Shown in pieces: positions 1 to 63,900 of a stretch of DNA of 64,000 bases. Numbering within the stretch: the stretch's first letter is position 1; each line of letters starts with the position of its first letter. The notes under the pieces were generated by a model. It had not been told where the DNA came from. It worked only from the letters and a program-made list of their open reading frames with translations, and did not search any database. The stretch spans positions 62,001 to 126,000 of the forward strand of contig NC_073409.1 of assembly GCF_028641065.1 (NCBI RefSeq), given 5' to 3'. The DNA is from Leucoraja erinacea (taxonomy: Eukaryota). The position numbers were made by a program, and so were the translations under genes.

Positions 1-1785
1 GGAGTTTCGATCATCCCGAACATCAGAACAGTCTGGAGCGGTGAACTGCGGAGGGTTCAAAGGCCCCGACCAAGGGTAAACAAAGGAGGAAGATAACTGA
101 ACTTTATTGCCTTCCATCACAGTGAGGATTGTTGATTCCACTGTGGTGGATGCTTATGTTTAATTATATTTTATGTGTGTATTGTGTTCTTTTCACTTAG
201 TATGGCTGTATGGTAACTCAAATGTAACTGTATCTCAATTGGTTAAGTGACAATAAATGCGAACTTGAACTTAAAAGAAAATTGCATGCAAGCCTCTCGT
301 TTCCAATTGGTATCTATTGACTAATAAATGAAACTACTTTATTTTATTTTATTTCTCACATGGAAATTTGAGTATTAAAGGTTGTTTCACAGTTTGTGAA
401 ATGTGAAAGGCTCCCTGTAATCATCCCTGTACAAGTTAGCCAATAGTATCTGTGAGATTAACTCAGCATACAGAGTTCCTTTAGCGTTAGGAAATTGTGT
501 CATTGTTCTGTGTGTTGCAGTCTGGAGTTCCATTGTATAGTTTTGCTTAATTCTACAGTATGTCTCTCGTTCAGAGGTTTAGGCAGAGCTCAATGTTACT
601 TGTTTTTTGTGGTAGGAACAGTCTAATGAGAACTGGTGACTACGCAGCAGATGGTCACTTGGATGACTGAATATGACATGCTGGTGCACTCGAATGACCA
701 ATCTGAATACAGTTCAGCTGTCTTGATGTGCACTGGCTTGATAAAGCTATATTGCAATTGTCTGTATTTAATTAATTTTGCAAAGAACCCAACTTGGCCT
801 CCTGTCATTCTCCCTTCCTACCTCTGCAATATGTGTTTGGCTGACTATTATCTTTGGCAGCATCTTTGGAGAGAGGGAATGGGTGATGTTTCGGGTCGAG
901 ACCCTTCTTCAGACCTGACCAGAAAGGTCTATAGGAGCAAAGAGGTCCTTCTGCAAATGCAATATGGACAAATCGTGGGCAGGTGGGACAAGTGTAGCTG
1001 GGACATGTTGGCCAGTGTGGGCAAGTTGGGCGAAGGGCCTATTTCCACACTGTATCGCTCTATGACTCAAGTTCCAACAGATTTGTCAGGCAAAATATCC
1101 CCTTCAAAAAACCATGCTGACTACGGCCTTTTTTATCATGTGTTTCTCAGTACCTGGAAACCATAATAATCATCAAATCTACCAACTACTGGTCAGGCTT
1201 CTGGCCCATAGTTTTTCCTCTTTTGCCTCTCTACCATCTTGAACAGTGGAGTAACATTTGCCATTTTCCAGTCAAACCCAACAAATGAGGGACGATCTTA
1301 TTCAAACAGGAAAGATCCAAAGAGGGCTTGACGGGATACATTTTTAAAATTCACTAGTTGGAGAATCTCAAACAAAGAGAGATAGCTACAAGATAAGGGA
1401 CCAGTCATTTAAATTGCAAGTGTATCAACATTTCTTTTCACAGTGGGTGTGACTTTTAGACAGATAGACGTAGGACCGGTTTAGAGGGATATGGGCCAAA
1501 CGCAGGCAGGTGGGACATGTTGGCTGGTGTGGGCAAGTTGTGCTGAAGGGCCTGTTTCCACACTCTGTGGCTCTATGTATGATTCTAGAACCCTTTGCTG
1601 AGTCAAGTTGCTTTGCAGGAATCCACAGCCCTTTAGATACTTTTCAGGGTGGGGGTCTGGCATAGATCTACAGATGTTTGTTAGTGAGCAGGTATTTAAA
1701 TGTTTGTCGTGCCCTGGCCATTAAAGGAGAGAAAGCAATCAAGATTTGATATTGCAGGACCAAATCCACTTCGATCTAATAACTG

Positions 1786-3225
1786 GTGGTAGACAAAAAT
1801 GCTGGAGAAACAGCGGATGAGGCAGCATCTATGGAGCGTAGGAAATAGGCGATGTTTCGGGTTGAAACCCTTCTTCAGACTGATGTGGGGGTGGGGGAGG
1901 AAGAAAGGAAGAGGTGGAGACAGTGGGCTGAGAGGGAGCTGAGAAGGGGAGGAGAAAGTAAGGACTACCTGAAATTAGAGAAGTCAATGTTCATACCGCA
2001 GGGGTACAAACTGCCCAAGTGAAATATGAGGTGCTGCTCCTCCAATTTACGGCGGTCCTCACTCTGGCCATGGAGGAGGCCCAGGACAGAGAGGGCGGAT
2101 TCGGAATGGGAGGGGGTTGAAGTGCTGAGCCACCGGGAGATAAGGTTGGTTATTGCGAACCGAGCTGAGGTGTTTGGCAAAGCGATTGCTAAACCTACGC
2201 TTGGTCTCACCGATGTAGAGCAGCTGATACCTAGAGCAGCGGATGCAATAAATGAGGTAGGAGGAGGTGCACCTGGAAAGACTGCTTGGGTCCTTGAATG
2301 GAGCCAAGGGGGGAGGTAAAGTGATAAGTGTAGCATTTCTTGCGATTGCAAGGGAAAGTGCCCGGAGAGGGGGTGGTTCAGGTGGGAAGGGACTAATTGA
2401 CCAGGGAGTTACGGAGGGAGCGGTCTGTGGAAAGCAGACAGGGGAGGAGATGGAAAGATGTGGCAAGTGGTGGGATCACGTTGGAGGTGGCGTGAATGTC
2501 GGAGGATTGTTTGTTGTATGTGACGGCTGGTAGGGTGGAAGGTGAGGACAAGGGCGACTCTGCCCTTGTTATGCGTGGGGGGATGGGGAGTGAGAGCAGA
2601 GTCATGGGGTATAGAGTAGACCCTGGTGAGAGTCTCATCTATGGTAGAAAAGGGGAATCCCTGTTCCCAGAAGAATGAGGACATCTCCGATGCCCTGGTG
2701 TGGAACACCTCATCCTGGGTGCAGATGCGGCGTAGATGGAGGAATTGGGAGTAGGGGATGGAGTCCTTACAGGAAGCAGGGTGGGAAGAAGTGTAGCCCA
2801 GATGACCATGGGAGTCAGTGAGTTTATAGTGGATGTCGGTCAGTAGTCTGTCACCTGCGATGGAGATAGTGAGGTCAAGAGATGGTAGGGAAATGTCAGA
2901 AATGGTCCAGGTGTATTTGAGTGCCGGATGAAAGTTAGTGGTGAAATGTATGAAGTCAGTGAGTTGGGTGCAGGAGGTAGCACCAATGCAGTCGTCGATG
3001 TAGCGGAGGTAGAGTTCGGGCATAGGGCCACGGTACGTCTCGAACAAGGATTGTTCGACGTACCCGACAAAGAGGAAGGCATAGCTGGGGTCCATGCACG
3101 TGCCCATAGCTACGCCTTGTATTTTGAGGAAATGGGAGCAGTCAAACGAAAAGTTATTAAGGGGAAGGACAAGTTCCACTAGGCAGAGGAGTGTATCAAT
3201 AGATGGGAACAGAATCAGCAATCTA
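1786..3225 (-). mobile_element. Penelope-like retroelement (RT + GIY-YIG endonuclease + terminal repeat), 5' truncated and frameshifted
   Basis: ORF 2409-3221 has RT motifs QGVAMGT and YLRYIDD. ORF 2059-2466 has GIY-YIG (IYCIRCSRYQLLYIGETKRR). ORF 1965-2351 ends with the typical ...GSLYPCGMNIDFSNFR. Confidence 0.9.
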
Positions 3226-3282
3226 TCTGTGCTGTGAAGACTAGATAATTACAGATAGTTTGGGAGTGGTTTGAAGATAAGG

Positions 3283-4430
3283 TACTACCCAGTATTCCGC
3301 AGGTTTCCGCCTTCTGCAGGGATCGTTCCTTCCGCAACTCCTTGGCTCACTCATCTCTAACCCTCACTCATTTAAGAATAAGGAGTAAGCCATTTAGAAC
3401 GGAGACGAGGAAACACTTTTTCTCACAGAGAGTGGTGAGTCTGTGGAATTCTCTGCCTCAGAGGGCAGTGGAGGCAGGTTCCCTGGATGCTTTCAAGAGA
3501 GAGCTAGATGGGGCGCTTAAAAATAACAGTCAGGGGATATGGGGAGAAGGCAGGAATGGGGTACTGATTGGGGATGATCAGTCATGATCACATTGAATGG
3601 TGGTGCTGGCTCGAAGGGCCGAATGGCCTCCTCCTGCACCTATTGTCTATTATTTCTTCCCACCCAAAGTATTGCTTCCCCAGGTACTTTCTTCTGCAAC
3701 TGTAGGAGATGCAAAACCTGTCCTTATACTTCCTTCCTCAACTCCATACAAGGACCCTGACAGTCCTTTCAGGCTAGACAGAGATTCACATGCACCTCCT
3801 CTAACCTCATCTACTGCATTCGGTATTCCCGATGTGTGCTCCAGTGCTTTAGCGAGACCAAACATAGGCTCACTGACTGTTTCGCTGAACACATACGCTC
3901 GGTCCATCTAGGCCTATGGGATCTTCCAGTTGCTAACTATTTCAGCTCCCCTTCCCATTCCCACACTGACCTTTCTGTCCTGGGCATCTTCCATTGTCAG
4001 AGTGAGACCACCTGCAAATTTGAGGAACAGCACGTCATATTTTGCTTAGGTAGCTTACAACCCAGTGGTATGAACATCGAAGTCTGTAATTTTAAGTAAC
4101 TTCTACTTACACTCCCCTCCCCTCCCTCCTCTTTTGTCCACACCTGCCCTTCGCCCACCCTTGCTGTTTTACCAGTTCCACACATGGTTTCTTTTGAGAT
4201 CACACCTTCCCTTGGCAACAATGGGGCCACCAGGCACTCTCTGCCTGAGCACATTTGTGGATGGCCCTGAGTGGTCCTGGTGTTTCCTCGCCTCTAGCTC
4301 TTCACCTCCCCCCCCCCCCCCCCCCCCCCCCACCCCCACCTTTCAGTCTGAAGAAAGGACCCGATTCGAAACATCATCCATCCTTTTTCTCCAGAGATGC
4401 TGCCTGACCCGTTGAGTTACTCAAGCACTG
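3283..4430 (+). mobile_element. Penelope-like element 3' part (GIY-YIG region + terminal repeat), interrupted by a CR1 3' fragment
   Basis: ORF 3836-4099 ends ...GSLQPSGMNIEVCNFK and is homologous to the opposite-strand copy. Terminal repeat with a poly-C tract at ~4307-4430. Confidence 0.85.
3364..3650 (+). mobile_element. CR1 LINE 3' fragment nested in the Penelope copy
   Basis: RT C-terminus FFSQRVVSLWNSLP followed by the CR1 3' UTR (gggccgaatggcctcctcctgcacc). Confidence 0.85.
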
Positions 4431-5139
4431 AGAGGCAGATCAGGGGACAGTCCTTGGAGAGAGTATGCCGGCAGAAGAAAAATAGTTGCATAACATTGAA
4501 ATGACTAAAGAGATTCAGGGATGGTTAGCTGTGGGTTGTTCTCAAGGGAAATGAAACAGGAATTGTGCACTTGAGGGGGTATTTGCTGGGACTAATAGAG
4601 GAAGTTGCAGTAAGAAAGAATTAATTACTGGATTTTAACTTGTCTTTCCCAAAGAAAGGGTTAGGATTCATGAGCAAGCAGATTTCCAGTTTGTCATGTT
4701 TGGGAACTAAGATAGACACAAAGTGCTGGAGTAACTCAGCGGGTCAGGCTGTATCTCTAGACAAAAAGGATAGGTAACGGATTGGGTTGGAACCCTTCAG
4801 TCTGACGAAGGGTCTGACCCAAAACAACACGCATCCTTTTTGTCCAGAGATGCTGCCTGACCAGCTCAGTTACTCCAGCACTTTAGTATAAACCAGCATC
4901 TGCAGTTTCTTTGATGTCCACCATTGGGATATAATTTCATGCCAAGTTTGGGAAACACTAGAGATTCCAGTGTTGGCTACCCACCTAGGAATAGAGGCAG
5001 GAAGCACTGGCAGGTGCAAAATGGACATGTTCAGAACACAAGGGCATTAGTAGCCCTGGGATAGGAACAGATTAGGTTTAGGATTATTCTTGTCATGTGT
5101 ATCGAGGTGCAGTGAAATGCTTTGATTTTGTTTTGTTTT

Positions 5140-6560: not shown

Positions 6561-8928
6561 GTGATTGTTTTCAGTGTCAGTAAACTGCTGTGCAGACTGG
6601 ATTGGTAATCAACTCGTGGCCCAGGTGTTATAGGGTACAGCAGAAACAAGACAAGAATCACCCTCTGTTCACATTGAGCCAATTCTGTGAAACACAAAGT
6701 ACTGGAGTAAAGCAGTGGGTCAGGCAGCATCTCTGGGGGACATAGATATGTGACCCTTATGTCAGTCAGGACCCTTATGGAGCATGTAAAAGGATCCAAC
6801 CCAAACGTTGCCTATCCATTCCCTCTACAGATACTCCCTGACCCACTGAGCTATTCCAAAACGTTGTGTTTTAATCAAGATTCCATTTGCAGTTTCTTGT
6901 GCCTCCCTGTACACTTCTCACAGAAATGTTAATCTTCATGAGAAGGTCCATGTGGCATCTTACACAAAATGGTGTACCCTTTATCCTTACTATATGGACA
7001 GATTGATTGTGATCACGTATAGTCTTTTCTTTGACTGGACAGCATGCAACAAAAAAGATTTTCACTGTACCTCAGTACATATGACACTAATAATAACTAA
7101 ACTAAACTAATTTAAAAATTAAAATCTAAAAGGATGCCATTGATCAGGCATGTAGGCATGTCAGCACAGTGATGACAGTAAATAATTATACATTATCACA
7201 TGGTCTTACGAAAGCTCAGCATCCACGGTTTCCAGTTTCACTTCCCAGGGGCTTACCAGTCTCTCGCTTAGATCAGATAAAGAGAGGAACACTATTTCCT
7301 GTACAGTGAAGTTAAGAACATAGACTTAAAGTGATGGAAAAAGGCAGGGAATCTGAGAAGAAATCTTCTTACATAGAATAGTTAAGCACTGCAGTGCATT
7401 GCAATGTTGTGAAAATGGAGAACCACTCACTGCACTACAGGAATTAGAATCACAGAATGGTTTAAGCAGAGACAGAGGCCTTTCATCCTATGAATTCTCT
7501 GCCAGTTCTTTGTGGAGAAATCCCATTAGTCCAATATCCCTTTTTCCTTGCGGCTCGGCAATAAATCCCACTTAAATGCCCATAGAACTGTTCCATCACC
7601 CTGATAGGCAGTGCACTCCAGTGCTTCACCATTCTGTAAGTTTGTATGTTTCCTTTCATATCCTTGTGTCTTTTCATATCATTTTAAAGTCTGTCTTGCC
7701 TGGATCTCACTGTAATGGGAATAGGTTCTCTCCATTGATCTTGCATAAGCACATTATGATCATCTATACCTTCCACAGTAACACCATAACACTGTAACCT
7801 CATGGTTAAAATATTTCATTCATGGATCCATTCCAGTCAATCTTTTCTAAACCTTGTCCTATTTCTACACATCATTCCTCAAGATAAATGACTAGAATTG
7901 AATGCTATACTCAAGTAACTTCAATTTGTTGCTAAATTATGTTATTAAATATTCAAAATAACCATAATGATTTAGCCATGGAAACATCTTAGGTTGCTGA
8001 AAATCTGAAGTAAAACAGAAATTGTTTCAAATACTCAGCAGGCCAAGTGACATCAGTGCACAGAGAAACAGAGTTAACATTTTAGGATTATTGGAGTTTT
8101 AAGGGCCTGTCCCACTTGGCGATTTTTTTCGGCAACTGCCAGCATCATTGACTGACGTATCAGGGTCAAAATCTTTTGGTGACACTGATATGACGCCGGC
8201 AGCCTACTTTGCCATCTTCATTCTCAATGTGATCTGTTACTTTCAAATATTTTTGGCCATATAATATCACACTTTTCAGTGTTAAACTTCAGCTGCCACT
8301 TGTCTACACATCATGTTAGGGTTAGGTTAATGCACTATCACCATCCTCTTCAGTTTGAAGACATATACAGATTTTTTAAACTCTATCCCCATTAATATAT
8401 GTCCCAGTGTATATCTCAAGGAAACCTCTTCCTACAATTTCCACTCCTTAATCCCATTTCCTAATGATGTTACAACTGACCCTTTATTTTCCCCAGGCAT
8501 GATTCTGATCATTTTTTTACGCCTTTGTCTGATATTTCATCAAAACAATTAATAGTTCAATTCACTTCACATTTTTAATGGCAAAGTTAAATTATGAAAT
8601 GTGTAAAACAAAGAAAATTAGATGCTGTGGTAAGGGATAGAATTTAACGTCCTATAATGATCACAGTCTGAGGTGGTTTGCTGCTGTTTGCCAATGATAA
8701 AGCTTTTACTTGACCGATTTATTCTGGTAAAAGTTGCTGTATGTTGCAAAGAACCTGAACCCCAAATTATGCTGATGCACAAAACGGAAGTAGAGTGAAA
8801 TCTGTCAGGACTGTCCTTGCCTTCATTTTCAGATCATAAATGTGATCAGATATCATACCTGCAGTGTCAGCAGTGTTCTGTCAAGCCCCTGAATATTTTA
8901 GCATCATTTACTGAATATTTGTGTTTAG

Positions 8929-9027: not shown

Positions 9028-9837
9028 GTAAGTTCCGCTGTAAAATTAGAAATTCCTTGTGTGGAGCACATACATTCACTTGCAATGTTCACAAGATCCA
9101 CATGACAACCACGTTTTTAAACAATTAAGAGTTACATTCAAGAATGTTACACATCAAGGTTCAAGATTAATCAACCACTGCAGTTAGTAAGAACCAAATA
9201 TTACAGCATCCGATGTGACACAGTCAGGCTTATCAAAACACTCTAAGCTTCCAGCTTCATTTCCTGCCTTGGGATCCACCCACCTGGAAAGGTCATTGGT
9301 ACAAAAAACATTCACTTGTTAAAAAAACCATTTAATTGGTCAGAGATTATGCACTTGATCCCTGAATTTTGATCTATGTTAGAAACATAGAAAATGGGTG
9401 CAGGAATAGGCCATTCGGCCCTTCGAATCATGGCTGATCATCGAAAATCAGTACCCCATTCCTGCTTTTTTCCCATATCCCTTGATTCCCTTAGCCCTAA
9501 GAGCTAAATCTAACTCTCTTGAAAACATCCAGTGAATTGGCCTGTTCCTGTTATTGGGGAAAAGTCAACATTTTGTCTTCACAAAGGTGATGTGGATATT
9601 GTAAGAACCTTTTTTGTTTTGAATTAGCTTTGTTGACAGCAAAAGAAACCAAGTGCTGGAATAACTCAGTGGGTCAGGCAGTATCTTTGGAGAACATGGA
9701 TAGGTGAAGTTTCAAATCGTGACCCTTCTTCAGACCGTTCTCCAGAGATGCTGCCTTACTTTGTGTCTTTTTTTGGTAAACCAGCAAATGCAGTTCCTTG
9801 TTTCCAGATTTATTGCAATTTTGATTACCTATCACAC

Positions 9838-11235: not shown

Positions 11236-11283
<48 letters not shown>

Positions 11284-14299: not shown

Positions 14300-15620
14300 A
14301 AGATAAAACAGATGTAGATGGTGTCAAGGAGCAGTTTCAGTGAGAAGAGGACTTTTAATAAATCAGATGGATTGCACCTCCATAAGAATAGAACCAATAT
14401 TCTAACGGGAGTTTGCTGGTGCTACGGAGGGGATTACAGAAGGAGAAGGAGACTACTTTAGCAGGGGGTTGTGAACAAGATTAGCTGCTAATATAAATGG
14501 GTATATAAGTAGTAAATGGGCGGTACATGGAGGAGACGTATTAAGCACGAAAATGGAACTTGCATGTGTATGCAGAAAGCAATGATTAAGGAACAAAATG
14601 AGTACTCTGCATCTGTCTTCAGGGAAGGGGGTACTTCTACAGTAATAGTGGAGCAGAAATAATAGTAATGTTAAAAATGGATAGTATGAAGGGTGTTGGT
14701 GAATTAAAAATATGAAAACCACTTGAACCAGAATGCTGCGCATCCAAGGATTTTGACGGATGTTTAGGAGGAAGTCACAAAGGCAATGTCATCACAGTTT
14801 AATGTTCTCTCTATAAAGATGGTGCCAGAGAACTGGTGACAGTTGCAAGCGTTACATCCTGTTCAAAAAATATAGAGTAAGCATAAAGTACTGGCTGATC
14901 TATTTAGCCTTGGTAATGGGAACAGTTTTAGAAACATTGAACTGTGGCACGATTAATGAAGGCAAACCCACACCCTTACATTAAGTGTCAATTATGTTTA
15001 AACAGTCTGATGGAAGTTCTTGTTGCAATGTTGGATGGAATAATGAGGGTAATGTAGTCAATTGGTGTAAATGTATTTCTAGAAGGCGTTTGATAAGATG
15101 CCACAGAACAGGCTTATCAGCAAAATTTAAACATGTATTAAAGGGACATTGATGAGATGGATATGAAGTAACAGAACAGAGGGTATTGGTTGTTCTGTCA
15201 GAAGGAAAGGAAATAATGGTGTTACCCAGGGAACAGTGTTAGGACCATTGTTTATTTTGGTCTATGTAAATGATTTAGATTGGGGGATGCAACCCACAAT
15301 TTATAAATTTACAGATGACATAAAACTAGGTAGACAAAAATGCTGGAGAAACTCAGCGGGTGAGGCATCATCTATGGAGCGAAGGAATAGGCGACCCGTA
15401 CCTTTGATTTTCCGGCATCTGCAGTTCCTTCTTAAACATAAACCTTAGCAGTGTTTTGAACTGAGATGAGGAAAGTGACAGATGATGAAGATATAAACTG
15501 GCTAGTGATAGATGATCAGACACTTGGTAGATGGTCTAATCATAAGCGGGGTGATGCATCTTGTTCGAATAAGTGAGAAGTAAGTGCTTTAGATCTTGAG
15601 AATCGCTCCAGCCGAGAGCT
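14300..15620 (+). mobile_element. Old, degraded CR1 LINE ORF2 remnants
   Basis: GVTQGTVLGPLFILVYVNDLD..KFTDDIKL RT motifs near 15220-15330; many stop codons. Confidence 0.6.
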
Positions 15621-20890: not shown

Positions 20891-22989
20891 TCTTTCTGTG
20901 ACTGTGTACAAGGACATCCCTTTGCACATCAATCATTTAAATAGCAATTCTCTCTTTAAACTGAAGTGGATAACCTCAGTTTTCCACAATGGCCTGTGTG
21001 CATTCCATATTTCCCCATTCATCTATCTTGCCACCTCTTTACATCGGAGTTTGGTGTATTGTTTTTTTATTGTCATATGTACTGAGATACAGTGGAAAAA
21101 ACATGGTATTGCATAGTATGTAGGAAAATCAAGAGCAACGGGAAGTTAAACCAGAGTATTTAGCTCGACCAATCAGACAAAATGTGTAAGAAGGAACTGC
21201 AGATGTTGGTTTAAACCGAAGACAGACACAAAAAGCTGGAGTAACTCAGTGGGACAGGCAGCATCTCTGGTGAGAAGTCTCAAGAAGGGTCTCAACTCAA
21301 AACGTCACCCATTCCTTCTCTCCAGAGATGCTGCCTGTCCCGCTGAGTTACTCCAGCATTTTGTGTCTATCAACCAGCCAGATATTGACCCAAATATAGC
21401 AGAAGATGCTGCAGCCAGCAAATCCAACCCAATCATCTCCCAAATGTTAGCTCATACGTATTGGCTGTGCATCAGTCGTCAGTTCATAACGTGGAGAGAA
21501 ATTGTACTACCATCTCTGACGACAAAGGGCCATGTTTACCTCAAAGACTCTAGTTTGTTCTCTCATTTTGTTTATCATTTATTGGACTCTAAAACATTCA
21601 CACTCATCAGGGTCACTGGTATAGGGGGGTTGAAGGTAGGTCATCGGGTCAAAGGGCGTGACGCACGGATCAACTCAATCCTTCTGGAGGACATGACAGC
21701 CTCCGGCATACACTGTTAACACACGAAACGCGTACTATCTTACCTGTTAAAAAAATGCCGAAATGGTCAATTTTTGTGCTGTAAATAATTCGGGAGGGTG
21801 AATGAGCACTCTGAACCAAATGCTCTAGTATCTTTGCTCTGAACCCGGGCACCTAAGTGTAAGCGGCCAAAGGAACGCATCCCTCGGGACAGCCCCCACT
21901 TTTCCCATGGGGTCAGTGCTGTCCGGCCACAGCTGCCCTCCGCCCCGTGCATTCGCACTGTCACGGGCTATGAGCCGGCAGCGCCCACACACTGGGACAA
22001 AAACCCGGCAACGTCCCCGTCAGCTGCAGCAGAGTTGGGGACAGTCTGGTCCCTCCGACAACCCAGTCACTGACCACACTACACCGACACCCCGACCCCC
22101 CTGCCCCACCCACGAGTGTGGAACCAGTCAGCATGGAGTCTGGATGCTGGGACAGAAGACAGGCCCATTGTACTGGCAGCCATAGTGAGTGCTTACCTGA
22201 TGTTCACCGCTTGTACTCCAGAAGGCGTTGCATGGCAACAGTACGGGTCACAGGTCGTGACCTTGACTGCCGTGCAACCTCTCTATTTCTGCCAAGCCCT
22301 TTTCTTGGGGTTAATGCCTTCTTTAATTCCTCTATGAATGTTAACAGGCAGTTCTGAAGTTCATTCGGCCCATCATGTCTACTCCTCCATTCAATCATGG
22401 CTGATCTATCTTTCCCTCTCAGTCCCATTCTCCTGCCTTTTCCCCGTAAGCCATCCGTACTAATCAAGAACCTGCCAATTTCTGCCTTCAAAATACCCAA
22501 TGCCGGCCTCCACCATCTGTGGCAATGAATTCCACAGATTCACCACCCTCGGACTAAAGAAACTCCTCCTCATCTTCTTTCTAAAGGTACCTTTTAATCG
22601 GCCTTTCACTATTCGACAGTCAGGCCAGGGGCATCTGCAGTCATGGAACCTGTTTTTGTCTGGGTGGGGGTGGGGTTGGGGCACACACAGATTGTAAAGA
22701 ACAACGAAAGTGTGGAATGAAGTGAAAGCAGAGAAACAAGAGGGATTGATGTAGATTTAGTGTGAGGTGGGCAGTGGGCAGATTCTGATTCGATGATACC
22801 TGCTGTTACTTTATTCACGATAATCACAATTCTCTCAGAGCCGCCTTCACCTCCGTTCTCAAACTCTCCCTCCCTCACTCAGAGCGATGATCCACTCGAG
22901 TCCCGCCTCGGGCACCACGGTGACTGTCCCCCAGATTAATCTCAGGGCAAACTAACCGGTGACCGAGGTTGCGGCCCGGCCCGGCTCCT

Positions 22990-32569: not shown

Positions 32570-32663
32570 AATGCGATTGCCAATGCATCAACCCTGGCTG
32601 AGGTGGAGAAATTGAAAGGAATGTTGCAGGCTGGGCAAATCCCAGGCAGAGACAGGAAGACTG
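32570..32663 (+). CDS. SNRPA1: SNRPA1 exon 8
   Basis: NAIANASTLAEVEKLKGMLQAGQIPGRDRKT; ttgcag/gtgagt; 94 nt. Confidence 0.97.
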
Positions 32664-33978
32664 GTGAGTTGAGAGCATGAACATAAAATCAAATGGTCCA
32701 AAGCAAGGAAAGTCCTGTTCTCCACAAAGCCCAATCTGCCGATAATGCATTTAGCAGTTTTGTTGCAGACTTCGCGTCCTTCTGCTTCACAAAACTATAT
32801 TCCTTGTGGTAGACACAAAATACTGGAGTAACTCAGCGGGACAGGCGGCAACTCTGGAGAGAAGGAATGGGTGACATTTTTGGGTCGAGACCCTTCTTCA
32901 GAGCTACTATATTTCCTATCCCCCTCGAGATTCAAAAAGGAACAAGCAGAGTATGTAAGATCAGAGAAAACTCTGCCTTCCCTTTTCTAGACTGATCAGA
33001 TTAAACCAAACCTCCAGTCTCCCCCTCCCTGACTCTGTCTGATGAAGGGTCTTGACCCAAAAAATAATCTATTCATTTTCTCCAGAAATGCTGCCTGACC
33101 TGCCGAATTATTCCAGCATTTTGTGTCAATCTTTGATCAGATTAAAATTTGTCCAGTGTGTTCATTTCTGAGCTCCCATGGATTGAGCCCCCATTTTATT
33201 GATTGGAGAGGCTGTTTCTATCAGAACATAAGAGACTGGAAGATTTAATTGGGGTGTAAAATATTATGAAGGATCTAGATACTGTAATTAGAGAACACCT
33301 TTTTGCAGAAGGCTAAAAAATCAGACAATTTAGAATCTGTTGAAAAGTGAAAGCTTTATAGCTGGGTGTGAGCCTGGAAGGTGAATAGAGACACAACCCC
33401 ACATTTTAAATAAAACTTGGAATTGTACATGAAAAGGCCTAACTAGTGATGGATAGTGAGATGGTACACAAAAATGCTGGAGAAACTCAGCGGATGCAGC
33501 AGAATCTATGGAGCGAAGGAAATAGGCAACGTTTCGGGCCGAAACCCTTCTTTAAGGATAGTGAGATTATGTTTGGCAGTTCTTTTTCATTTGGCATGAA
33601 TATAATGGCTGAATGGCTCTGTTATAATTTTTTTGCAATTCTACACTTGTTTGGTTTAGTTCCTTTTTTATTTGCCCAGATCTCTGCCGATCTCCCCTTT
33701 CTATAAAGCAAGGCCAGACTTTTTCCATTATGTCAACAAACATTATTATCTCTCCACTGCTGTCACTACACGCTGACTGGTAGTAAACACTATCTGAGTG
33801 AACTGTGCAGCCCAGGTACTATTACTAATTGATAATGTAATACTGAGCTCCGTTACAGTACTGGTTAAAGCAACCCTCAACATCCTTGTGAAACTATTTT
33901 ATTAACAATTGTCAATCTTTTAATCTTTGAATAAAAAGAGTAGCAAGTTTAAGATGTCAGACATTTATGTTTTTACAG

Positions 33979-35962: not shown

Positions 35963-36496
35963 TGGTAAATGGACACACTGATCTGCATTTATGCGTACAA
36001 TATTCTGTTGTGCTGCAGCAAGCAAGAATTTCATTGTTCTATCTGGGACACATGACAATAAACTCTTGACTTGAAGGGCCTGTTTCCATGCTGTATTTCT
36101 AAACTAAAGACATGATGGGCATGCATGATTCTGTGATTAGTTGTACAGGAGGATTGGAGTTGGAAAGGAAACAGAATCTCGGTTGGGATAGAGTCCGGAT
36201 GGAGTGACAATTATACTGCAACACCTGCTGTGAAAATCCAGGGGGATCAGACATGATCCAGCACAGTCTGTGGTGCGAAACGGGCCCTTATGTCCAGTAG
36301 CCAGATGTTCCATCAACAGGTACACAAAAAAGCTGGAGAAACTCAGCGGGTGCAGCAGCATCTATGGAGCGAAGGAAATAGTCAACGTTTCGGGCCGAAA
36401 CCCCCATCAACAAACAGCCTTTAGCTCCTGCTGTGGGCCCCACCCCACCGGCGCCGCCGGCGTTACCCTTTTAAACGCGGATGCAGGTCCTGATTT

Positions 36497-36573: not shown

Positions 36574-36607
36574 ATGGAGGAGCGCGAGGGGCCGGCGGTG
36601 ACAGCAG
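36574..36607 (+). CDS. SELENOS: SELENOS exon 1 (MEEREGPAVTA + G)
   Basis: Strong Kozak context acgATGG directly after the promoter motifs. Donor CAG|gtggtt gives phase 1, matching the exon 2 acceptor. The N-terminus is shorter than in mammals, so this exon is less certain. Confidence 0.7.
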
Positions 36608-42325: not shown

Positions 42326-42449
42326 GTACAGAATTTTACAATATTTTACTTTAACGGGCATTTTTTAACTTTTATCCAGATTCTAAACTGAATTAATACA
42401 TTTGTAATCTACAAGTGAGAATTGAATTTCAAAATGCAAGGAATCTTCG

Positions 42450-42901
42450 GCTGGAGTAACTCAGCGGGTCAGGCAGCATCTGTGGAGAACGTGGATAGGT
42501 GACGTTTCACAGAGTGCTGGAGTAACTCAGAGAGTCAGGCAGCATCTGTGGAGAACATGGATAGGTGACGTTTCACAGAGTGCTGGAGTAACTCAGCGGG
42601 TCAGGCAGCATCTGTGGAGAACATGGATAGGTGACGTTTCACAGAGTGCTGGAGTAACTCAGCCGGTCAGGCAGCATCTGTGGAGAACATGGATAGGTGA
42701 CGTTTCACAGAGTGCTGGAGTAACTCAGCAGGTCAGGCAGCATCTGTGGAGAACATGGATGGGTGACGTTTCACAGAGTGCTGGAGTAACTCAGCGGGTC
42801 AGGCAGCATCTGTGGAGAACATGGATAGGTGACATTTCACAGAGTGCTGGAGTAACTCAGCGGGTCAGGCAGCATCAGTGGAGAACATGGATAGGTGACG
42901 T
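42450..42901 (+). repeat. 66-bp tandem array (~7 copies) derived from the Penelope terminal repeat
   Basis: Unit agagtgctggagtaactcagcgggtcaggcagcatctgtggagaacatggataggtgacgtttcac starts at 42511, 42577, 42643, 42709, 42775 and 42841, with a partial copy before them. Confidence 0.95.
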
Positions 42902-43863
42902 GAACAGGAATGGGTGGTCGGGGGTCCGGACCTTCTTCAGACAGGAATAAAATAGTTTGTAGACGGCTCCCAACCTGAAACGCCACCAACCTTTTTCTTC
43001 TGAGATGCTGACTGACTCGTTGAGTTACTCCAGCACTCAGTGTCTATCTTCTGTATAAACCAGCACCTGCAGTTAATTTTTACATAAATCTTGGGCTGGA
43101 TTGGCTTGTGATTGACTAAAGTTTATTTCATGCTCTGGATTTGAATCTGTTTATTAGGGGCTACAGACCTTTTATTGGATGCTCGAAGTAGACATTGATG
43201 TGATAGTCAGAATGGCTTCTTGTACCGTATATTTTTTTATCATTCTGCAAACTTCTATTTGCTTTGTCATTGATAAGACAGGTTGATTGGTAGGGTGCAA
43301 AGTCGTTTTATGAGGATGTTTCTGGGACTGGAGGGTTTGCATTATGATAACTGATCCACACAAAAGGACACACAGTGCTGGAGTAACTCAGCTGGTCAGG
43401 CAGCATCTACGGGGAACATGGATAGATCCCGCTTCAGACTAATCCCTACAAGCTGGGTTCATGACATCCATTTGAGAAGGTTGAGCATATTATTAGAATT
43501 TATTATTTCTACTATATTTTCTCATCATATTTTAAGAGTTTTTGGAATAATTTTACATTTGAACTTTGATGCCATTGGACTTCAATTGTGATTTGATGGT
43601 GGTTTGTTAGTTTCACATTGTGGACAACCCACCTTCTAGATGTAACAGAAAACTCAGTAAATCATTGTCTTTGGACAGAAATGTAGTCTTCTCTCTGGTC
43701 AATTTATTAAGTTTGTCTTAGTTCTGCATTCATAAGAATTATTTGATCTATATTTCATAATATCGGATATGAACTATTCCTATGCCTATTCCTAAAGGTA
43801 AAATCTATTTTGCTTAAGGTTGGAGCTTCTTTAAATGTATTAATGTATTCTCCTTGTGTCCAG

Positions 43864-50533: not shown

Positions 50534-50536
<3 letters not shown>

Positions 50537-50569: not shown

Positions 50570-50570
<1 letters not shown>

Positions 50571-56432: not shown

Positions 56433-56949
56433 TTTCACAGCTGAATAAATGCTCTGAAGGTGGTCACTGTAATGTCACAAATTATGGTACATAATCTTCA
56501 TGCACTATATTCCAGTTTGATTTGAATTTCAAAAATGAACTTTATTAAGAATAAAAAATATATAAAACAAAAACTGCAAAATTCTTCAATACATATTTAG
56601 TGTTCATTCATTCTATAGTGTTGCACTCAGTAATATTCACATCTTTCTTTAAATAAAATACAAAGTGCTGGCAAACACCTTTGCCGCTCATTTTGCTCCC
56701 AGTGGTGATATCTCTTCCACTGTTTGAGGAGTCCCCCCTCCGGACCCTGCACTGCTCTGCTCAGTAGTGTTGTGGTGCTTGCACACAGTCTGTATTCGTT
56801 GTACCCAACTGCAGTGTGTCCTCGGCCCTAAAGCCCTCGATGTCTCGGAACAGCACGGTAACTTTCATTTTCAAAAATAAACTTTATTCAGAATAAAGTA
56901 TATTCTGACCAGCTGTGTTACAAAGATTCTAGAGTTACTCCAGCACTGT

Positions 56950-57155
56950 GTTAAAGAGGGAACTGCAGATGCTGGAGAATCGAAGGTTACACAGAAAAGC
57001 TGAGAAACTCAGCGGGTGCAGCAGCATCTATGGAGCGAAGGAAATAGGCAACGTTTCGGGTCTGAAGAAGGGTTTCGGCCCGAAACGTTGCCTATTTCCT
57101 TCGCTCCATAGATGCTGCCGCACCCGCTGAGTTTCTCCAGCTTTTCTGTGTAACC
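56950..57155. mobile_element. Fold-back Penelope-terminal-repeat element with 15-bp TSD and a hammerhead-type core
   Basis: Arms at 56985-57060 and 57079-57155; TSD ttactccagcactgt at 56935-56949 and 57156-57170; CTGAAGA...GAAACGTT at 57062-57089. Confidence 0.85.
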
Positions 57156-57221
57156 TTACTCCAGCACTGTATCTGTCGGCGGGATATAAATCCCCAGGCG
57201 CCGGCGGCAATGCGCCTTTAA

Positions 57222-57276: not shown

Positions 57277-57325
57277 CGCGGGTCGACAGCAGGGAAAGTA
57301 GTGGGAGAGAGAAGAGGAGAGGGGG

Positions 57326-58084
57326 GCGGTGGGGGGGCACTAGGACCGGGCACGGCACGGCGGTGGGGCACTAGGACCCGGCACGGCACGGCAGTGGGGC
57401 ACTAGGACCCGGCACGGCACGGCACGGCAGTGGGGCACTAGGACCCGGCACGGCACGGCACGGCGGTGGGGCACTAGGACCCGGCACGGCACGGCAGTGG
57501 GGCACTAGGACCCGGCACGGCACGGCACGGCAGTGGGGCACTAGGACCCGGCACGCACGGCACGGCGGTGGGGCACTAGGACCCGGCACGGCACGGCAGT
57601 GGGGCACTAGGACCCGGGCACGGCACGGCAGTAGGACCCGGCACGGCACGGCAGTGGGGCACTAGGACCCGGCACGGCACGGCAGTGGGGCACTAGGACC
57701 CGGCACGGCACGGCAGTGGGGCACTAGGACCCGGGCACGGCACGGCAGTGGGGCACTAGGACCCGGCACGGCGGTGGGGCACTAGGACCCGGCACGGCGG
57801 TGGGTCACTAGGACCCGGCACGGCACGGCAGTGGGGCACTAGGACCCGGCACGGCAGTGGGGCACTAGGACCCGGCACGGCAGTGGGGCACTAGGACCCG
57901 GCACGGCAGTGGGGCACTAGGACCCGGCACGGCACGGCGGTGGGGCACTAGGACCCGGCACGGCAGTGGGGCACTAGGACCCGGCACGGCAGTGGGGCAC
58001 TAGGACCCGGCACGGCACGGCGGTGGGGCACTAGGACCCGGCACGGCACGGCAGTGGGGCACTAGGACCCGGCACGGCAGTGGG
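57326..58084 (+). repeat. GC-rich compound minisatellite [GTGGGGCACTAGGACCC(GGCAC)nGGC(A/G)] x ~25 between the CHSY1 promoter motifs and the ATG
   Basis: About 25 TAGGACC cores with mostly 26/31/36-bp spacing, caused by a variable number of GGCAC pentamers. Confidence 0.95.
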
Positions 58085-58236
58085 GAGCGGGGACATGGAG
58101 GAGCGGCAGTGGCGGCACCGCGGGTCCCCGGCCTCCGCCAACCGGCCCCACTAAACGGCGGGGTGATCGCCCCGGCCTCGGGTACCCACAGCCCGACTAG
58201 CGAAGCGGCCGCGATAGAGGCCGGGCCCGGGCGGGG

Positions 58237-59004
58237 ATGGCGCCGCGCTGCCGGCGCTCCTGGCTCAGCGTGTTGTTGGGCCTAGTGCTCGGCTTCGGCC
58301 TCGCCTCCTGGTTGGTGCTGCCCCGGGCCACAGTGCCGGGGCGGGCGGCGCGCCAGCGGGAGAGGGCCGGGTGCGGGCAGTTAGCGGGGTCTGCGGGCGG
58401 GGAGGAGGATGAGGACGAGGATGAGCGGCCCGCCGCCTCCCGCTTCATGTACGTGGGGGTGATGAGCGCCAAGAAGTACCTGAGGAGCCGGGCGCTGGCG
58501 GCCTACGGCACCTGGGCCCGACACATCCCCGGCCGCGTCGAGTTCTTCTCCAGCGAGGGCTCAGACCTCAGCCTGCCGCTGCCGCTCGTCGCCCTCCCCG
58601 GCGTGGACGACACCTACCCGCCGCAGAAGAAGTCCTTCCTGATGCTCAAGTACATGGGCGAGCGGCATCTGCAGCACTTCGAGTGGTTCGTGCGGGCCGA
58701 CGACGACACATACATCCGCGGCGAGAGGCTGGAGCGCTTCCTACGGGGCCTCAACAGCAGCCAGCCGCTGTACCTGGGCCAGACCGGCCTCGGCGCGCCA
58801 GAGGAGATGGGCAAGCTGGCGCTGGAGCCGGGCGAGAACTTCTGCATGGGTGGCCCGGGCGTGGTGCTGAGCCGTGAGCTGCTCCGCCGGGTGCTGCCTC
58901 ACATCGGCCAGTGTCTGCGGGAGATGTACACCACACATGAGGACCTGGAGCTCGGCCGCTGTGTGCGCAGGGTCGCCGGCGTTCAATGCGCCTGGTCTTA
59001 TGAG
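58237..59004 (+). CDS. CHSY1: CHSY1 (chondroitin sulfate synthase 1) first coding exon; the gene continues beyond the window
   Basis: MAPRCRRSWLSVLLGLVLGF...YPPQKKSF...WFVRADDDTYI...ENFCMGGPG...HEDLELGRCV...CAWSYE then GAG|gtaagg; 768 nt. It sits next to SELENOS and SNRPA1, as in human. Confidence 0.93.
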
Positions 59005-59877
59005 GTAAGGACACAAGCCGAGCCTCTGATTCTCCGGCACTTTGTGCTCTCGGGAGGAGGAGGTGATGCCGGGGAAGCAGAGGCAGGGATGCTGCTGGTA
59101 AAACCATAGTCAATGCATGTCACAGTCTGAAAGTATAAACATGAAAACACCAACCTAGGGGAGGGAAGAGCAAAGTGATTGCCAAGTGGTGCGAAGGAGC
59201 TCGCAAGCTTGAAGTCACTTCTACACCCAGGGGGTGATTGATGTACTATAGTGTGGAACTTTTCTCCACGTGACAGCTATTACTCGACCAGTATTTTTAG
59301 TGAGATCCTTTGTCAAGAATGAGGAATTGAAGTTAAAGTTTCGACATAGTAATTGTTATTAAGATTATAAATCAATCATGATTTCATTCAAAGATGCTTG
59401 AAGAGGCATGGATATAAATCGTGCATCAGTATATATGTCTGGAGATATATTAAATAACTCCTAGTTAGGAGTATCAAACAATTGTGTGGATATTTGAGGT
59501 TTTATGTATGAAGAATGTATAAATTCTTCAATTTGTGCAGCTTCTGGATATTAAATCATTTGCATAATATTACTAGATCTTGCAAAATTGAATTTTGAGT
59601 TTAATTTGTGTAACAACATGAAAATCCTGACGTTGCAAGAATCTCCAGGTCAAAAAAATAAAGTGCTGAGGAACTCAGCGGGTCAGGGAATGGATATTTT
59701 GGGATGGGATCCTTTGAGGGACCTTTCTTCAAATGGTCCTCACCCAAAATATCATTAGTCTATTTCCTCCACAGATTCTGTTTTACCTGCTGAGTTCCCA
59801 CAGCACTGTTTCTTGCCCAAAAAGTTCTTTGAATTATGTGCTGTGGATAAAGTGGAGCAAGTCTACTTTATTTGGGG

Positions 59878-60065
59878 TTAAAGAGGGAACTGCAGATGCT
59901 GGAGAATCGAAGGTTACACAGAAAAGCTGGAGAAACTCAGCGGGTGCAGCAGCATCTATGGAGCGAAGGAAATAGGCAACGGATTTCGGCCCGAAACGTT
60001 GCCTATTTCCTTCGCTCCATAGATGCTGCTGCACCCGCTGAGTTTCTCCAGCTTTTCTGTGTAAC
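59878..60065. mobile_element. Second fold-back element, near-identical to 56950-57155, with a 15-bp TSD
   Basis: TSD ctactttatttgggg at 59863-59877 and 60066-60080; the central hammerhead half is deleted. Confidence 0.85.
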
Positions 60066-60366
60066 CTACTTTATTTGGGGACCTTTTTGATAAGTTTTAC
60101 ATCAAAAGTTGTTGAAAATAGAATTTGGTGTAGGTGGATATATATTTATTGGATAGATAATTGACGTACTAACTGGAAAATTGTGCATAAACGACCCTTT
60201 TGTTCGATTGATGTGTCAGTGGGATCAGTACCATAGTCTCGGTTTTTTCCATTTGTCTTGTATGAAGTTAACCGACTGAAGTATGGTGACTTCAATTTTC
60301 TCGATGAAAGAGGACAAAAATAGGTTGTGGCTGTGCAAAGATCTGGCAAATGTGGCAAAAAGATGC

Positions 60367-60402
60367 GAGTCTGAAGAAGGGTCTCCACCTGAAACGTCAC
60401 CC
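60367..60402 (+). ncRNA. Minimal type I hammerhead ribozyme motif (Penelope-derived)
   Basis: gagt-CTGAAGA-agg/gtctcca/cct-GAAAC-GTC-accc has an intact core, a 3-bp helix II, a palindromic loopless helix III and a GUC cleavage triplet. Helix I is weak. Confidence 0.55.
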
Positions 60403-61374
60403 ATTCCTTCTCTCCAGAGATGCTGCCTGGCCTGCTGAGTAAAGTATTTTTTATCAAAAGATGATATTTGGGTATTTTAGAGCATGAATATAGCAAAATA
60501 ATAGTCTGGGGAAGTTGAATAAAAGACAGGGAGCATGTATATACAATATTTCAGTCGTATATAAATCAGAAAGAAGGTGGGTGCTGAGCCAATGGACAAT
60601 GGTTTTGCAAGGAAAGGTTAAACAAGCTCGTTTTGTGTCTGCTGAAGTTTAGCTAAGTGAGGGCATAATTGAAAAATAAACCAACGGCTAGTGCTCACTC
60701 AGATAGGAGCTGAATCTATTGTTTAATACGATTACACCAACTGATCTGATTGTACTCTCAAAATCACAGTCCAGTCAATTCTTCAAGTATCGAACACTTC
60801 CTTAAAAATAATCCCAAAAAATCTTCCACCACTCTGGAGGAAGCACGAGGATTCCATCCTTAAAAACTGTATCTCAGCCCTGTTAAATAGGCTTTTTTTC
60901 CTTCCTTGCTGCACATCAAGGCTATGAGAGCACCTATAAAATCTTGGTATTTGTGATTTGTGTGGTGAATTAAACAAAAAAAGCATGGCATAAATGTGTT
61001 CTTTGTGTGAGACAAAGGGGCGACATGGGTGCACCAGAGTCTGCTTGTAGAGGAACGTTGGGCTGCAGTAAGTTTATCACACAAAAATCAGGGTTCTCAC
61101 CGTATGTACTACGTAATATTCAATAAATTGAGTAGTTCTCGCTTGCCATGTGAATACGTTCTTTGAAGTGTCAGAAGAACCTGCCTGGAACCAACCAGAC
61201 TGGTATGAATGCTATAAGGGGAATATGGTGATATAACTGCAAGCTGTTGGGAAATGGAATATGCATACCAGATTTAAATAGCATTGGGACAGAGAGAAAC
61301 TGTTACCTGTGCACACTCTCGGGTACCCTGCAGTGAGAGTTGTGAAAAGATTTGTAGAATGGACAGGCAAATGG

Positions 61375-62220
61375 TTCAGAGCATCCGAGATGTCCTCATT
61401 CTTTGGGGAACAAGGGTTCCTCACTTCTATCATAGATGAAACCCTCACACGTACCTCCTCGGTACCCCCGTAGCTCTACTCTTACTCACCCCTCCCCAGT
61501 TGCAACAGGGACAGAGTTCCCCTAGTCCTCACCTTTCACCCCATCAGTCACCTCCAATAATATCCCACCACTAATCACATTTTTCCATCTCCACCCCTTT
61601 CCGCAGAGACCGTTCCCTCTGCAACTCCCTGGTTAATTCATCCCTTCCCACCTAAACCACCCCTTCCCCAGGTACTTTCCCCAGCAACCGCAGAAGATGC
61701 AATGCCTGTCCCTATACCTCCTACCTTGACTCCGTCGAAGGACCCCGATAGTCCTTTCAGGTTGGGCAGAGGTTCACTTGTACCTCCTCCAACCTCATCT
61801 ACTGTATTCGTTGTTCCAGGTGTGGGCTATTGTATATTGGCGAGACCAAGCATAGACTGGGTGACTGCTGAACACCTTTGCTCAGTCCGCCTTGGCCTAT
61901 GAGATCTCCCAGTTGCCAAACACTTTAACTCCCATTGCCATACTGACAATTCTGTCCTCCATGGTAGACAAAAAATGCTGGAGAAACTCAGCGGGCGAGG
62001 CAGCATCTATGGAGAGAAGGAATAGGCGACGTTTCGGTTCGAGACCCTTCTTCCTCTTTCTGTCCTCCATTGTCAGAGTGAGGTCAAATGCTAATTGAAC
62101 GAACACCATGTCATATTTCGCTTGGGCAGCTTGCAAACTGACGGTATGAATATTGATTTCTCTAACTTCAAGTAACTCTTGCATCCCCCTCTCTCTCCAT
62201 CCCTCCCCCTTCCTAGGTCA
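61375..62220 (+). mobile_element. Penelope-like element 3' fragment (GIY-YIG region) with a nested short terminal-repeat insertion at 61963-62057
   Basis: NLIYCIRCSRCGLLYIGETKHRL and ...GMNIDFSNFK, homologous to 1965-2700. The nested insert is flanked by the 13-bp duplication ttctgtcctccat. Confidence 0.85.
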
Positions 62221-63683
62221 TTGTACTAGTTTTGCTGCTGTCCTGTGCAGAAAGAAACTGCAGCTGCTGGTTTAAATCGAAGATAGACACAAAATGCTGG
62301 AGTAACTCAGCCGGGCAGGCAGCATCCCTGGAGAGAAGGAATGGGTGACGTTCGGTGAAGGGTCTCGACCCAAAACATCACCCACAGATGCTTCACTGTT
62401 GTCCTTTTGAGGTTTATTGTCTGTATAACACAGCCAGCAATGGACAGTTTCCTTGATCATTGTTACTTTTTTGCATATCTTTCATTCATTTGTTCTATAT
62501 CACTGCTCTTGTTTCACTTTCCCCTGATTCTCAGTCTGAAGCAGGGTCTTAACCCAAAACGTCACCGATTCCTTTTCTCCAGAGATGCTACCTGACCCGC
62601 TGCATTACTCCAGCTTTTTGTGTCTAGTTTAAACCAGTATTTACAGTTCCTTCCTGCATGGCAAATGATAAATGTTGTGGAATGCCTTTTGAATGTGGAC
62701 ACAGTTGATATCCTGCAACGGACTAGGCTTTTAGAATTGTATTGCAATGTTTCTCTCTACAATAAAATGTTTTGTATTCCAAATGATCCAGATCTCCCAC
62801 AGCTGGAACTGGTCATTATATGATGTGCAGCCAACATGGAGTTTGGTGATTCCTGTCTCCTTGCCCCTTGAGCTTTAAGCAGCTGGGTAAAAGCTGACTT
62901 TAGATTTGATTTCAAGCAAAGATAGTGTGCACAAAATTGCAGAAAGGTAAAAGTTGTAGGTTTGGATCTGAGCTGAATTATCTTCCATACAGACAGGCCA
63001 CTTTTTGCATTCTGGATTGCAATGTAGTTGTCACTGGATTTTACTAGTGGAAGGTGGCCTTTTATTAAAACATTTTTTATGAAAAACCTTGAATTGGAAT
63101 GATGTCTTTCAAAACAAGATGGTGACAAGACTGACAGCATATTTCTGTTCCAAACATTATGTAACTTTGTGAATTCCTGAGGTTTGCTCATCAAAGAGGG
63201 CATTTTTATATTTTTGCATCACACTGAGACTTGGTGACACGATTCCTGTTTTGTAACTAAAAAACAAACTAGATGTTGGAACTGTGTATATAAAAACAAT
63301 GCTGGAAATCTTCTGCAGGTCAGGCTGCAGAGTGCGAAGAGCAGTACACTGATTGCTTACTGACTTTGAATACCGTCTGCATGATTCAAATGCAAATGCT
63401 TATTATGGGCATGTTGGAATGCTTCTTAATAAACAATTAAATCCTGAACCAGATCAGCATTGGGTTTTGGCCTATGACCTATGAGAACGACAGGTGGAAT
63501 TTCTCAGCCCAGATCTGCAGATTCTTTTATGCTTGAGGTCTCAAAGACCTCATCTCTGCTATTTGCTAATCATCAGCAATACTAACTCCTAGTTTGTTTC
63601 TATTAAGATGTGTTCCTTAAACTAATATCAGATAATATTTTATACTCTGTATCATAAATCTCCAGATTAGGATTTAGAATCGG

Positions 63684-63900
63684 ATAGACACCAGATGCTG
63701 GAGTAACTCGCCGAAACGGGCAGCATCTCTGGATAGAAGGAATAGGTGACGTTTTGGGTCGAGACCTTTCGGAGTCTGAAGAAGAGTCTCAACCCGAAAC
63801 GTCACCCATTTCATCTATCCAGAAATGCTGCCTGTCCCGCTGTTACTCCAGCATTTTGTCTCTATCTTCAGTGTAAACCAGCATCTGCAGGTCCTTCCTG
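63684..63900. mobile_element. Fold-back Penelope-terminal-repeat element with a hammerhead-type core
   Basis: Inverted arms gatagacac..gctggagtaac / gttactccagc..gtctctatc; CTGAAGA at 63776 and GAAACGTC at 63796. Older relatives lie at ~4710-4890, 6690-6880, 9650-9790, 21190-21370, 32808-33130 and 62250-62650. Confidence 0.75.

Follow-up and report, generated by a model that had tools for sequence, protein, structure and literature searches.

The commonest short repeat in a 64,000-nucleotide stretch of the Leucoraja erinacea genome (contig NC_073409.1, positions 62,001 to 126,000; the whole stretch is called the window below) is very probably the 3' terminal-repeat (pLTR) end of a Penelope-like element (PLE), apparently of the Neptune type, that has likely spread as separate, very short reverse-transcribed insertions and whose hammerhead ribozyme motif is likely an inert passenger. 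An original prediction, made from the sequence alone, had recognized the motif as a minimal type I hammerhead of a Penelope-like terminal repeat and derived the short repeat from that element; both points held.

Motif copies were present at all 13 of the positions named in that prediction. Plus-strand copies have their C3 at 4348, 4802, 33039, 57062, 60371, 62536 and 63776, and minus-strand copies occupy 885-912, 1851-1878, 9706-9733, 32874-32901, 33528-33555 and 62028-62055. The rank of the repeat as the commonest in the window was likewise borne out by self-BLAST, in which its depth reached 37 while no other family exceeded 7. When 11 window copies were made into a profile of the ~100-nt unit, it gave 56 matches at E<1, of which 42 were at E<1e-5, and the density of the repeat is ~1 match per 1.5 kb; the same profile run on three block shuffles gave 0, 0 and 2 matches, both at E above 0.6. 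The exact pattern CTGANGA-N5..25-GAAACG occurred three times against 0.10 expected, and the 28-mer given in the original prediction occurred seven times at ≤3 mismatches, compared with none in 100 shuffles.

The majority form of the motif, tallied from the 13 ungapped window copies, runs CUGAAGA, an extra A, a 4-bp helix II, GAAA, an ACGU palindrome and then C17; pairing in helices I and II, and covariation, were scored on 16 copies. CUGANGA and GAAA are both intact in 7/13 copies, and the unpaired nucleotide between A9 and G10.1 is A in 12 and C in one. The G10.1-C11.1 pair is present in 8/13 copies, the one at 60371 not among them, and 87.5% of the cells are paired in helix II, for which the range in minimal PLE hammerheads is 3-7 bp. 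Helix III reads ACGU in 5/13 copies, and five of the remaining eight differ from it just by a CpG transition. Decay of the copies is concentrated at CpGs: 26/78 CpG cells are changed, versus 34/286 non-CpG cells (p 2e-5), and transitions account for 23 of the 26. Most copies other than 57062 and 60371 had been described as decayed, which leaves out that those at 33528 and 62028 are also 5'-truncated and without CUGA.

The first and second pairs of helix I form in 14/16 copies each, the third in 3/16 and the fourth in 8/16. Wherever a copy retains its native flank, helix I is 2 bp long, as it is in the genome-wide consensus of the upstream sequence, and the consensus of loose read ends at 59984 and 60368, which represent other genomic copies, has the same native upstream context. 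This native helix is shorter than the stem I of 3-7 bp in the published descriptor (PMC4209133). Three copies (912, 9733 and 57062) pass the descriptor, each with a third helix I pair that comes from the insertion junction; when stem I is relaxed to 2 bp those at 1878 and 60371 pass too, and 63776 never passes. Families with a 2-bp helix I, from Culex, Drosophila and Oikopleura, appear in Figure S3 of PMC4209133; a helix of this length lowers the case for membership in the minimal PLE hammerheads, of whose known range it is the weak end, but does not exclude it.

The motif might resemble a hammerhead only by accident, through a palindromic stretch that the terminal repeat happens to contain. 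This possibility draws on the failure of helix I pairs 3 and 4 and on the covariation within the window alignment, which is marginal (score 0.314, with 8/500 shuffles as high; the paired fraction was reached by 47/500). It also draws on Rfam, in which no hammerhead model matched across the whole window at the gathering score, while a scan of 56.5-64 kb at E up to 10 gave 25 matches, none of them a hammerhead. We give this explanation almost no chance, since the motif agrees with the published PLE consensus in its position, the extra nucleotide after A9, the G10.1-C11.1 pair and the palindrome at 15.2-16.2, descriptor matches number 3-5 in the window versus 0.00-0.01 in shuffles, and helix I covaries in unrelated metagenome families that have this core. 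Of the checks proposed with the original prediction, the search for type I hammerheads gave matches with the published descriptor but not with the Rfam models, and covariation was clear only in the metagenome relatives. Sub-threshold Rfam miRNA and hairpin matches at 57007-57133 and 59930-60047 merely reflect inverted repeats and were set aside.

The metagenome comparison comprised 123 loci with the same core, from a partial scan (9 of 64 parts). Their helix I averages 3.0 bp, compared with 1.34 in cross-pair shuffles; among 72 distinct flank pairs, 35 form at least 4 bp (shuffle maximum 14), with many pair types, and 25 form 2 bp or less. The published descriptor is passed by 92/123 loci, and 31/123 have a PLE protein match. 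The core pattern had no match in viral contigs and seven in prokaryotic genome contigs (L124-L130), which were left out of these statistics. Two of the seven, L125 and L128, resemble eukaryote-like metagenome families and may be host sequence contaminating assembled genomes; L129, a match to L098, has a helix I of 4 bp. At four metagenome loci (L039, L046, L107 and L118) two inverted hammerhead cores are separated by 26-33 nt, so skates are not alone in having inverted junctions next to the ribozyme.

The element from which the repeat derives is represented in the window by three bodies (A, B and C in Table 1), not by two as first thought, each of them bearing the motif at its 3' end as had been predicted. 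A tblastn search with the reverse transcriptase (RT), linker and endonuclease (EN) of the homologue P0003 placed RT/EN sequence immediately 5' of the motif and in its orientation in all three. The RT region is 63% identical to shark proteins carrying RT domains, and the open reading frames (ORFs) of all three bodies are broken. A Cys linker lies between RT and EN, with three Cys in the close homologue P0003 and as a remnant in element C. Such a Zn-finger-like linker is a feature of the Neptune and Nematis clades (PMC8557442), and Neptune is widespread in vertebrates (bioRxiv 10.64898/2026.07.22.740005); on the linker motif and this distribution the element appears to be of the Neptune type, an assignment made from the motif and not from a tree. 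Bodies A and B stand head to head (1785-4432) with a 280-bp insertion of another repeat family between them; they belong to different subfamilies and have no common target duplication. A pyrimidine tract followed by CAG, like a 3' splice site, lies two bases 5' of the core at 4330-4350, 1876-1900 (-) and 62510-62538. An intron of the D. virilis Penelope ends at helix I (PMC4209133). Of the splice joints in the reads, 15 were listed and 4998 were not; none of the listed ones fell at this CAG.

The short copies carry the marks of truncated insertion. Exact direct repeats of 8-15 bp (≥8 bp required) flank 8/13 insertions, versus 57/3000 random pairs, with the boundaries picked by eye and a slack slightly wider than that of the null. 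Measured from C3, their 3' ends are of two kinds, short (~+91 to +99) and long (~+124 to +131). The tail score exceeded 99% of the null on exactly one arm in 10/13 head-to-head pairs, four of these ten arms being also tail references, and on both arms in none; three pairs, one of them borderline, have the tail on neither arm. The tail was found in 0/11 unpaired short copies and in one of the three element bodies. The head-to-head junctions differ from pair to pair, the two youngest included, and arm identity ranges from 79% to 100%, so that the insertions span a range of ages. The 5' ends were counted in 30 short copies (the 42 matches minus four unaligned, four array units and four that bear untranslated region (UTR) sequence): 27 lie between -9 and +29 of C3, eight within the three bases (AGT) just before C3 and two at +29, the base after the predicted cut, a clustering that is partly ascertainment because detection favours longer copies. 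Sequence 5' of the cut site is thus part of most copies, whose template was likely uncleaved RNA.

These patterns have a counterpart in the anole PLE (PAc), in which both target strands are cleaved and extended and RT starts at two sites bounding the tail, on uncleaved RNA (PMC11167929). PLEs typically have an inverted truncated partner and a tail on one side only (PMC8557442, PMC8969392). In the mechanism that we propose for the skate family, the PLE protein would nick both target strands 8-15 nt apart, and each nick would give rise to one cDNA, the two starts lying at separate internal sites of the uncleaved element RNA. Both cDNAs would usually stop at or within the hammerhead region; joined by microhomology they would form a hairpin, while a second cDNA that was tiny or absent would leave a single copy. 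Any activity of the motif in the source element would be that of a double hammerhead assisted by protein, and after insertion the copies would decay by CpG deamination or be buried in their own inverted arm. The step from the patterns of ends, tails and junctions to double priming with microhomology joining is one that we infer. In its fuller form, the proposal is that the skate Neptune family inserts mainly as 100-230 bp double-primed hairpins, with the short start site used at one nick and the long (tail) site at the other, and with the hammerhead region as the stop and annealing point for both cDNAs and not a cleaving ribozyme; we offer this tentatively, as a possibility and not as the expected outcome. 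That the hairpins come mainly from one cDNA folding back on itself was rejected, as the two arms have different 3' ends. New copies lie inside an older copy or inside body C at 56932-57170, 61963-62057 and 62244-62390, which suggests self-targeting insertion into the family's own repeat or body.

An alternative origin for the short copies is a self-standing non-autonomous family, like short interspersed elements (SINEs), miniature inverted-repeat elements (MITEs) or retrozymes, arising from short master transcripts that use the Penelope RT. The original prediction had called the repeat SINE-like; only its small size agrees with that description, as no copy has a tRNA or Rfam head, and the junctions, target duplications and one-sided tails point to separate truncated Penelope insertions. 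The short copies do far outnumber ORF-bearing bodies, their 5' ends cluster as described, and the two youngest hairpins have the same subfamily and the same long end. By eye, the antisense strand at 32826-32895 and in other copies has stretches that we take to resemble the A and B boxes of pol III promoters, ~40 nt apart and without a cloverleaf, a likeness that may be due to chance. Non-LTR retrozymes have themselves been proposed as PLE derivatives (bioRxiv 10.64898/2026.07.22.740005). We nevertheless consider a self-standing family unlikely: the junctions vary even between the two youngest pairs, no poly(A) end is present, and genome-wide reads run upstream into the pyrimidine-rich UTR at the loose ends. 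The sole tandem array (42438-42919) has seven 66-bp units that start at GAAAC and are without CUGANGA and helix II, and no other head-to-tail core array was found in the window. Two specific candidates were thereby rejected, namely a tRNA- or 5S-derived SINE (no ARAGORN or Rfam match at any copy, and 3' ends that are the short and long ends of a PLE) and a non-LTR retrozyme, which is defined by at least two tandem units, each with a complete type I hammerhead ribozyme (HHR).

Reading the repeat as truncated PLE ends leaves the question of the copies around CHSY1. Exon 1 of this gene is the ORF from 58240, 98% identical to the Amblyraja radiata CHSY1 protein, and intron 1 begins at 59005 with a GT donor. 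A tblastn search with the A. radiata protein found no further CHSY1 exon in the window, so intron 1 contains the copies at 60371, 62536 and 63776 in sense orientation, as had been predicted for the first and last of them; the copy at 57062 lies outside the gene, ~1.15 kb 5' of the start codon. The copies at 57062 and 60371 had been thought to keep every core nucleotide. Both keep CUGANGA, GAAA and UH, but 57062 has the triplet GUU, and 60371 has a G.U pair in place of G10.1-C11.1 through a CpG-type change.

The sense copies in intron 1 (60371, perhaps with 62536 or 63776) might still function as ribozymes, cleaving the pre-mRNA and adjusting expression of the host gene. The copy at 60371 keeps CUGANGA, GAAA, the ACGU palindrome and a GUC triplet, lies outside any inverted repeat and has two more ACGU-bearing sense copies 2.2 and 3.4 kb downstream; its insertion is also present under two other organism labels. 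We regard cleavage of this kind as very improbable, and the original suggestion of it was not upheld. Besides its G.U pair, 60371 has the native 2-bp helix I and fails the descriptor (stem I ≥3 bp), and the 62536 copy is without A9 and G12. In a nearest-neighbour folding model, which ignores tertiary contacts, co-transcriptional folding and proteins, the copy at 57062 stands at the apex of an inverted repeat predicted to form a single hairpin of -175 kcal/mol, and 63776 is predicted to be buried in a hairpin of -127 kcal/mol, with an A.C mismatch in its helix II. The modelled probability of helix II in a 328-nt context is 0.000 for 57062 and 63776 and <0.01 for 60371. As a modelled double hammerhead, 60371 has a dG of -0.7, versus a median of -13.7 kcal/mol for 72 relatives; this model too ignores tertiary contacts and serves for ranking only, and its energies were left unused for 912 and 1878, for which they are meaningless without helix I or the ACGU palindrome. 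Minimal PLE hammerheads of metazoans show no cleavage as monomers and low cleavage as dimers (PMC4209133), a review reports the same weak activity (PMC6765202), and the anole PLE hammerhead requires PLE protein (PMC11167929). The copies near CHSY1, mutated or predicted to be buried in hairpins, are thus likely passengers that do not cut host RNA.

Sequencing reads from four of 24 listed runs were placed on 59800-64000 at 88% likeness; two single-cell RNA runs gave 55,424 and 59,652 reads there, of 17.6 million records, almost all of them on repeats. The family is therefore common in RNA, likely as an intronic passenger. No pile-up of molecule ends was seen on 59800-64000 in the two single-cell runs, a weak test that is not locus-specific, as the libraries are fragmented and unique intron depth is 0-2. 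A poly(T) loose end at 62467 in the reads suggests internal oligo-dT priming. The perfect 70-bp inverted repeat at 59878-60065 is likely a double-stranded RNA substrate; the RNA and DNA runs have similar counts of A>G and T>C, giving no separable editing signal.

Several observations weigh against the reading of the repeat as an inert, truncated PLE end. The window holds no intact ORF or full-length source element, and the limits already given for the Neptune assignment, the window covariation, the duplication boundaries, the tail references and the folding model apply. Non-CpG positions vary less within the core (8/130) than elsewhere (28/156; p 0.004), a difference inflated by the choice of copies for core similarity and enlarged by subfamily differences; it could reflect selection, and it would also be expected if the source subfamilies kept the core. 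Under two other organism labels, contigs cross from unique flank into the 60371 copy at either end; the insertion is shared among them and has therefore been retained for some time.

Table 1. Penelope-like bodies, short copies of the repeat and the host exon in the window
Feature	Position	Strand	Description	Evidence
Penelope-like element A	1785..3250	-	5'-truncated RT, Zn-finger-like linker, frameshifted GIY-YIG, 3' UTR, pLTR end; motif 1851-1878 with CpG-decayed helix III (ACAU)	GIY-YIG E 3.6e-5, tblastn E 3e-83
Penelope-like element B	3656..4432	+	linker/GIY-YIG remnant, pyrimidine-rich UTR, decayed motif 4348-4375	tblastn E 5.6e-26
Penelope-like element C	61377..62658	+	broken RT end, C-x3-C-x2-C-like linker remnant, GIY-YIG, UTR, long 3' tail; decayed motif 62536-62563; split by two short insertions of the same repeat	tblastn, linker remnant, tail scoring
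Short copy	856..915	-	intact core; ACAU in helix III; helix I of 3 bp through the junction
Head-to-head pair	4705..4915		arms 4711-4798 (-) and 4798-4912 (+); C3 4802; tail on plus arm
Old head-to-head pair	6690..6900		arms 79% identical; weak tail on plus arm
Head-to-head pair	9640..9795		motif 9706-9733 (-); tail on plus arm
Pair	15323..15440		minus arm begins at GUC; plus arm is tail only
Head-to-head pair	21183..21371		decayed motif 21279 (+); tail on minus arm
Single copy	32806..32904	-	G12 lost
Single copy	33006..33133	+	~25 nt of UTR; C3 33039; 13-bp target duplication
Single copy, truncated within core	33463..33555	-	first 7 nt are the reverse complement of the long tail end; 12-bp target duplication
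Single copy	36319..36403	-	from helix II onward; 9-bp target duplication
Tandem array and head-to-head pair	42438..43084		seven 66-bp units (-); pair with tail on plus arm
Young hairpin insertion	56950..57155		motif 57062-57089 on plus arm; tail on minus arm; arms 98.7% identical over 77 nt; triplet GUU; 15-bp target duplication; within an older copy of the repeat
CHSY1 exon 1 (host gene)	58240..59004	+		protein likeness, tblastn
Young hairpin insertion, CHSY1 intron 1	59878..60065		no CUGANGA on either arm; tail on minus arm; arms 100% identical over 70 nt; 15-bp target duplication
Single sense copy, CHSY1 intron 1	60366..60455	+	motif 60371-60398; G10.1.U11.1; 2-bp helix I; 8-bp target duplication; predicted site after 60398
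Truncated single copy within element C	61963..62057	-	13-bp target duplication
Head-to-head pair within element C UTR	62244..62390		tail on minus arm
Hairpin insertion, CHSY1 intron 1	63682..63903		motif 63776-63803 on plus arm; tail on plus arm; arms 84% identical; helix II A.C mismatch; 10-bp target duplication

Older, diverged relatives of the repeat occur at 52098-52150 (-), 8015-8084 (-) and 38727-38788 (-). At 52149 the flanks could pair as a 4-bp helix I on the assumption that the cut site has lost one base, hinting that an older family had a longer helix I. An exon of SNRPA1 (U2 A'; residues 204-237) lies near 32564-32665 (+), and its neighbourhood with CHSY1 matches the human gene order. 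An ARAGORN call of tRNA-Gln at 56829-56929 (-), without Rfam confirmation, is probably spurious. At 11527-12402 (+) there is an open frame of 291 aa with acidic repeats and a coiled-coil-like end, and with no Pfam match at E 0.01. Three minisatellites unrelated to the repeat, namely a 30-bp array, a TG-rich array and a GC-rich array, occupy 23222-24059, 36600-38130 and 57294-58105; the units of the GC-rich array are 26-36 bp long, and it lies between a CCAAT-containing region and the CHSY1 start codon.

Penelope terminal repeats have been known since 2014 to carry minimal hammerheads, dispersed in their thousands, and as a hammerhead finding the present one is ordinary. No description of the skate family was found in the literature searched, which mostly excluded subscription papers and did not extend to Repbase and Dfam. 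The lasting interest lies in the insertion anatomy, with its dense copies, target duplications and one-arm tails, as a record of two-site priming by a PLE, and a whole skate genome would allow statistical tests of how PLE insertions are completed and of the role of the ribozyme. Should the double-priming reading be true, skate genomes would preserve a very large natural archive of how PLEs insert, and their introns would be densely supplied with hairpins of double-stranded RNA. Were 60371 to cut CHSY1 pre-mRNA, it would be a notable co-opted minimal hammerhead; the evidence points against this.

Among known systems, the minimal PLE hammerheads (PMC4209133) have in common with the skate motif the CUGANGA core, the unpaired nucleotide after A9, the G10.1-C11.1 pair, a loopless palindromic helix III, location in the pLTR and mostly dispersed single motifs with some opposite-strand pairs. 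The skate motif differs from the descriptor of that work in its 2-bp native helix I, against 3-7 bp, and has a 4-bp helix II; no cartilaginous fish is among the motifs listed in its Figure S3. EN-containing (EN+) Neptune PLEs (PMC8557442) resemble the skate element in RT, Zn-finger-like Cys linker, C-terminal GIY-YIG, 5' truncation, an inverted truncated partner and a 30-40 nt tail at one end. Unlike Neptune as described there, most skate insertions are only 90-230 bp long and nearly all pLTR end. Non-LTR retrozymes (bioRxiv 10.64898/2026.07.22.740005), reported in one chondrichthyan genome, are likewise short non-coding derivatives of PLE pLTRs with a type I hammerhead motif, but consist of tandem units with complete HHRs, whereas the skate copies are single or head-to-head. 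Poseidon of Anolis carolinensis (PAc; PMC11167929) has, like the skate family, two discrete 3' ends separated by the tail, retention of the uncleaved hammerhead, insertion into its own repeat and no RNA ends seen at the predicted site. PAc belongs to another clade, and its ORF starts inside the hammerhead, whereas no long ORF follows the motif in the skate copies; its activity has been demonstrated, while the skate family is known here from sequence, folding models and reads.

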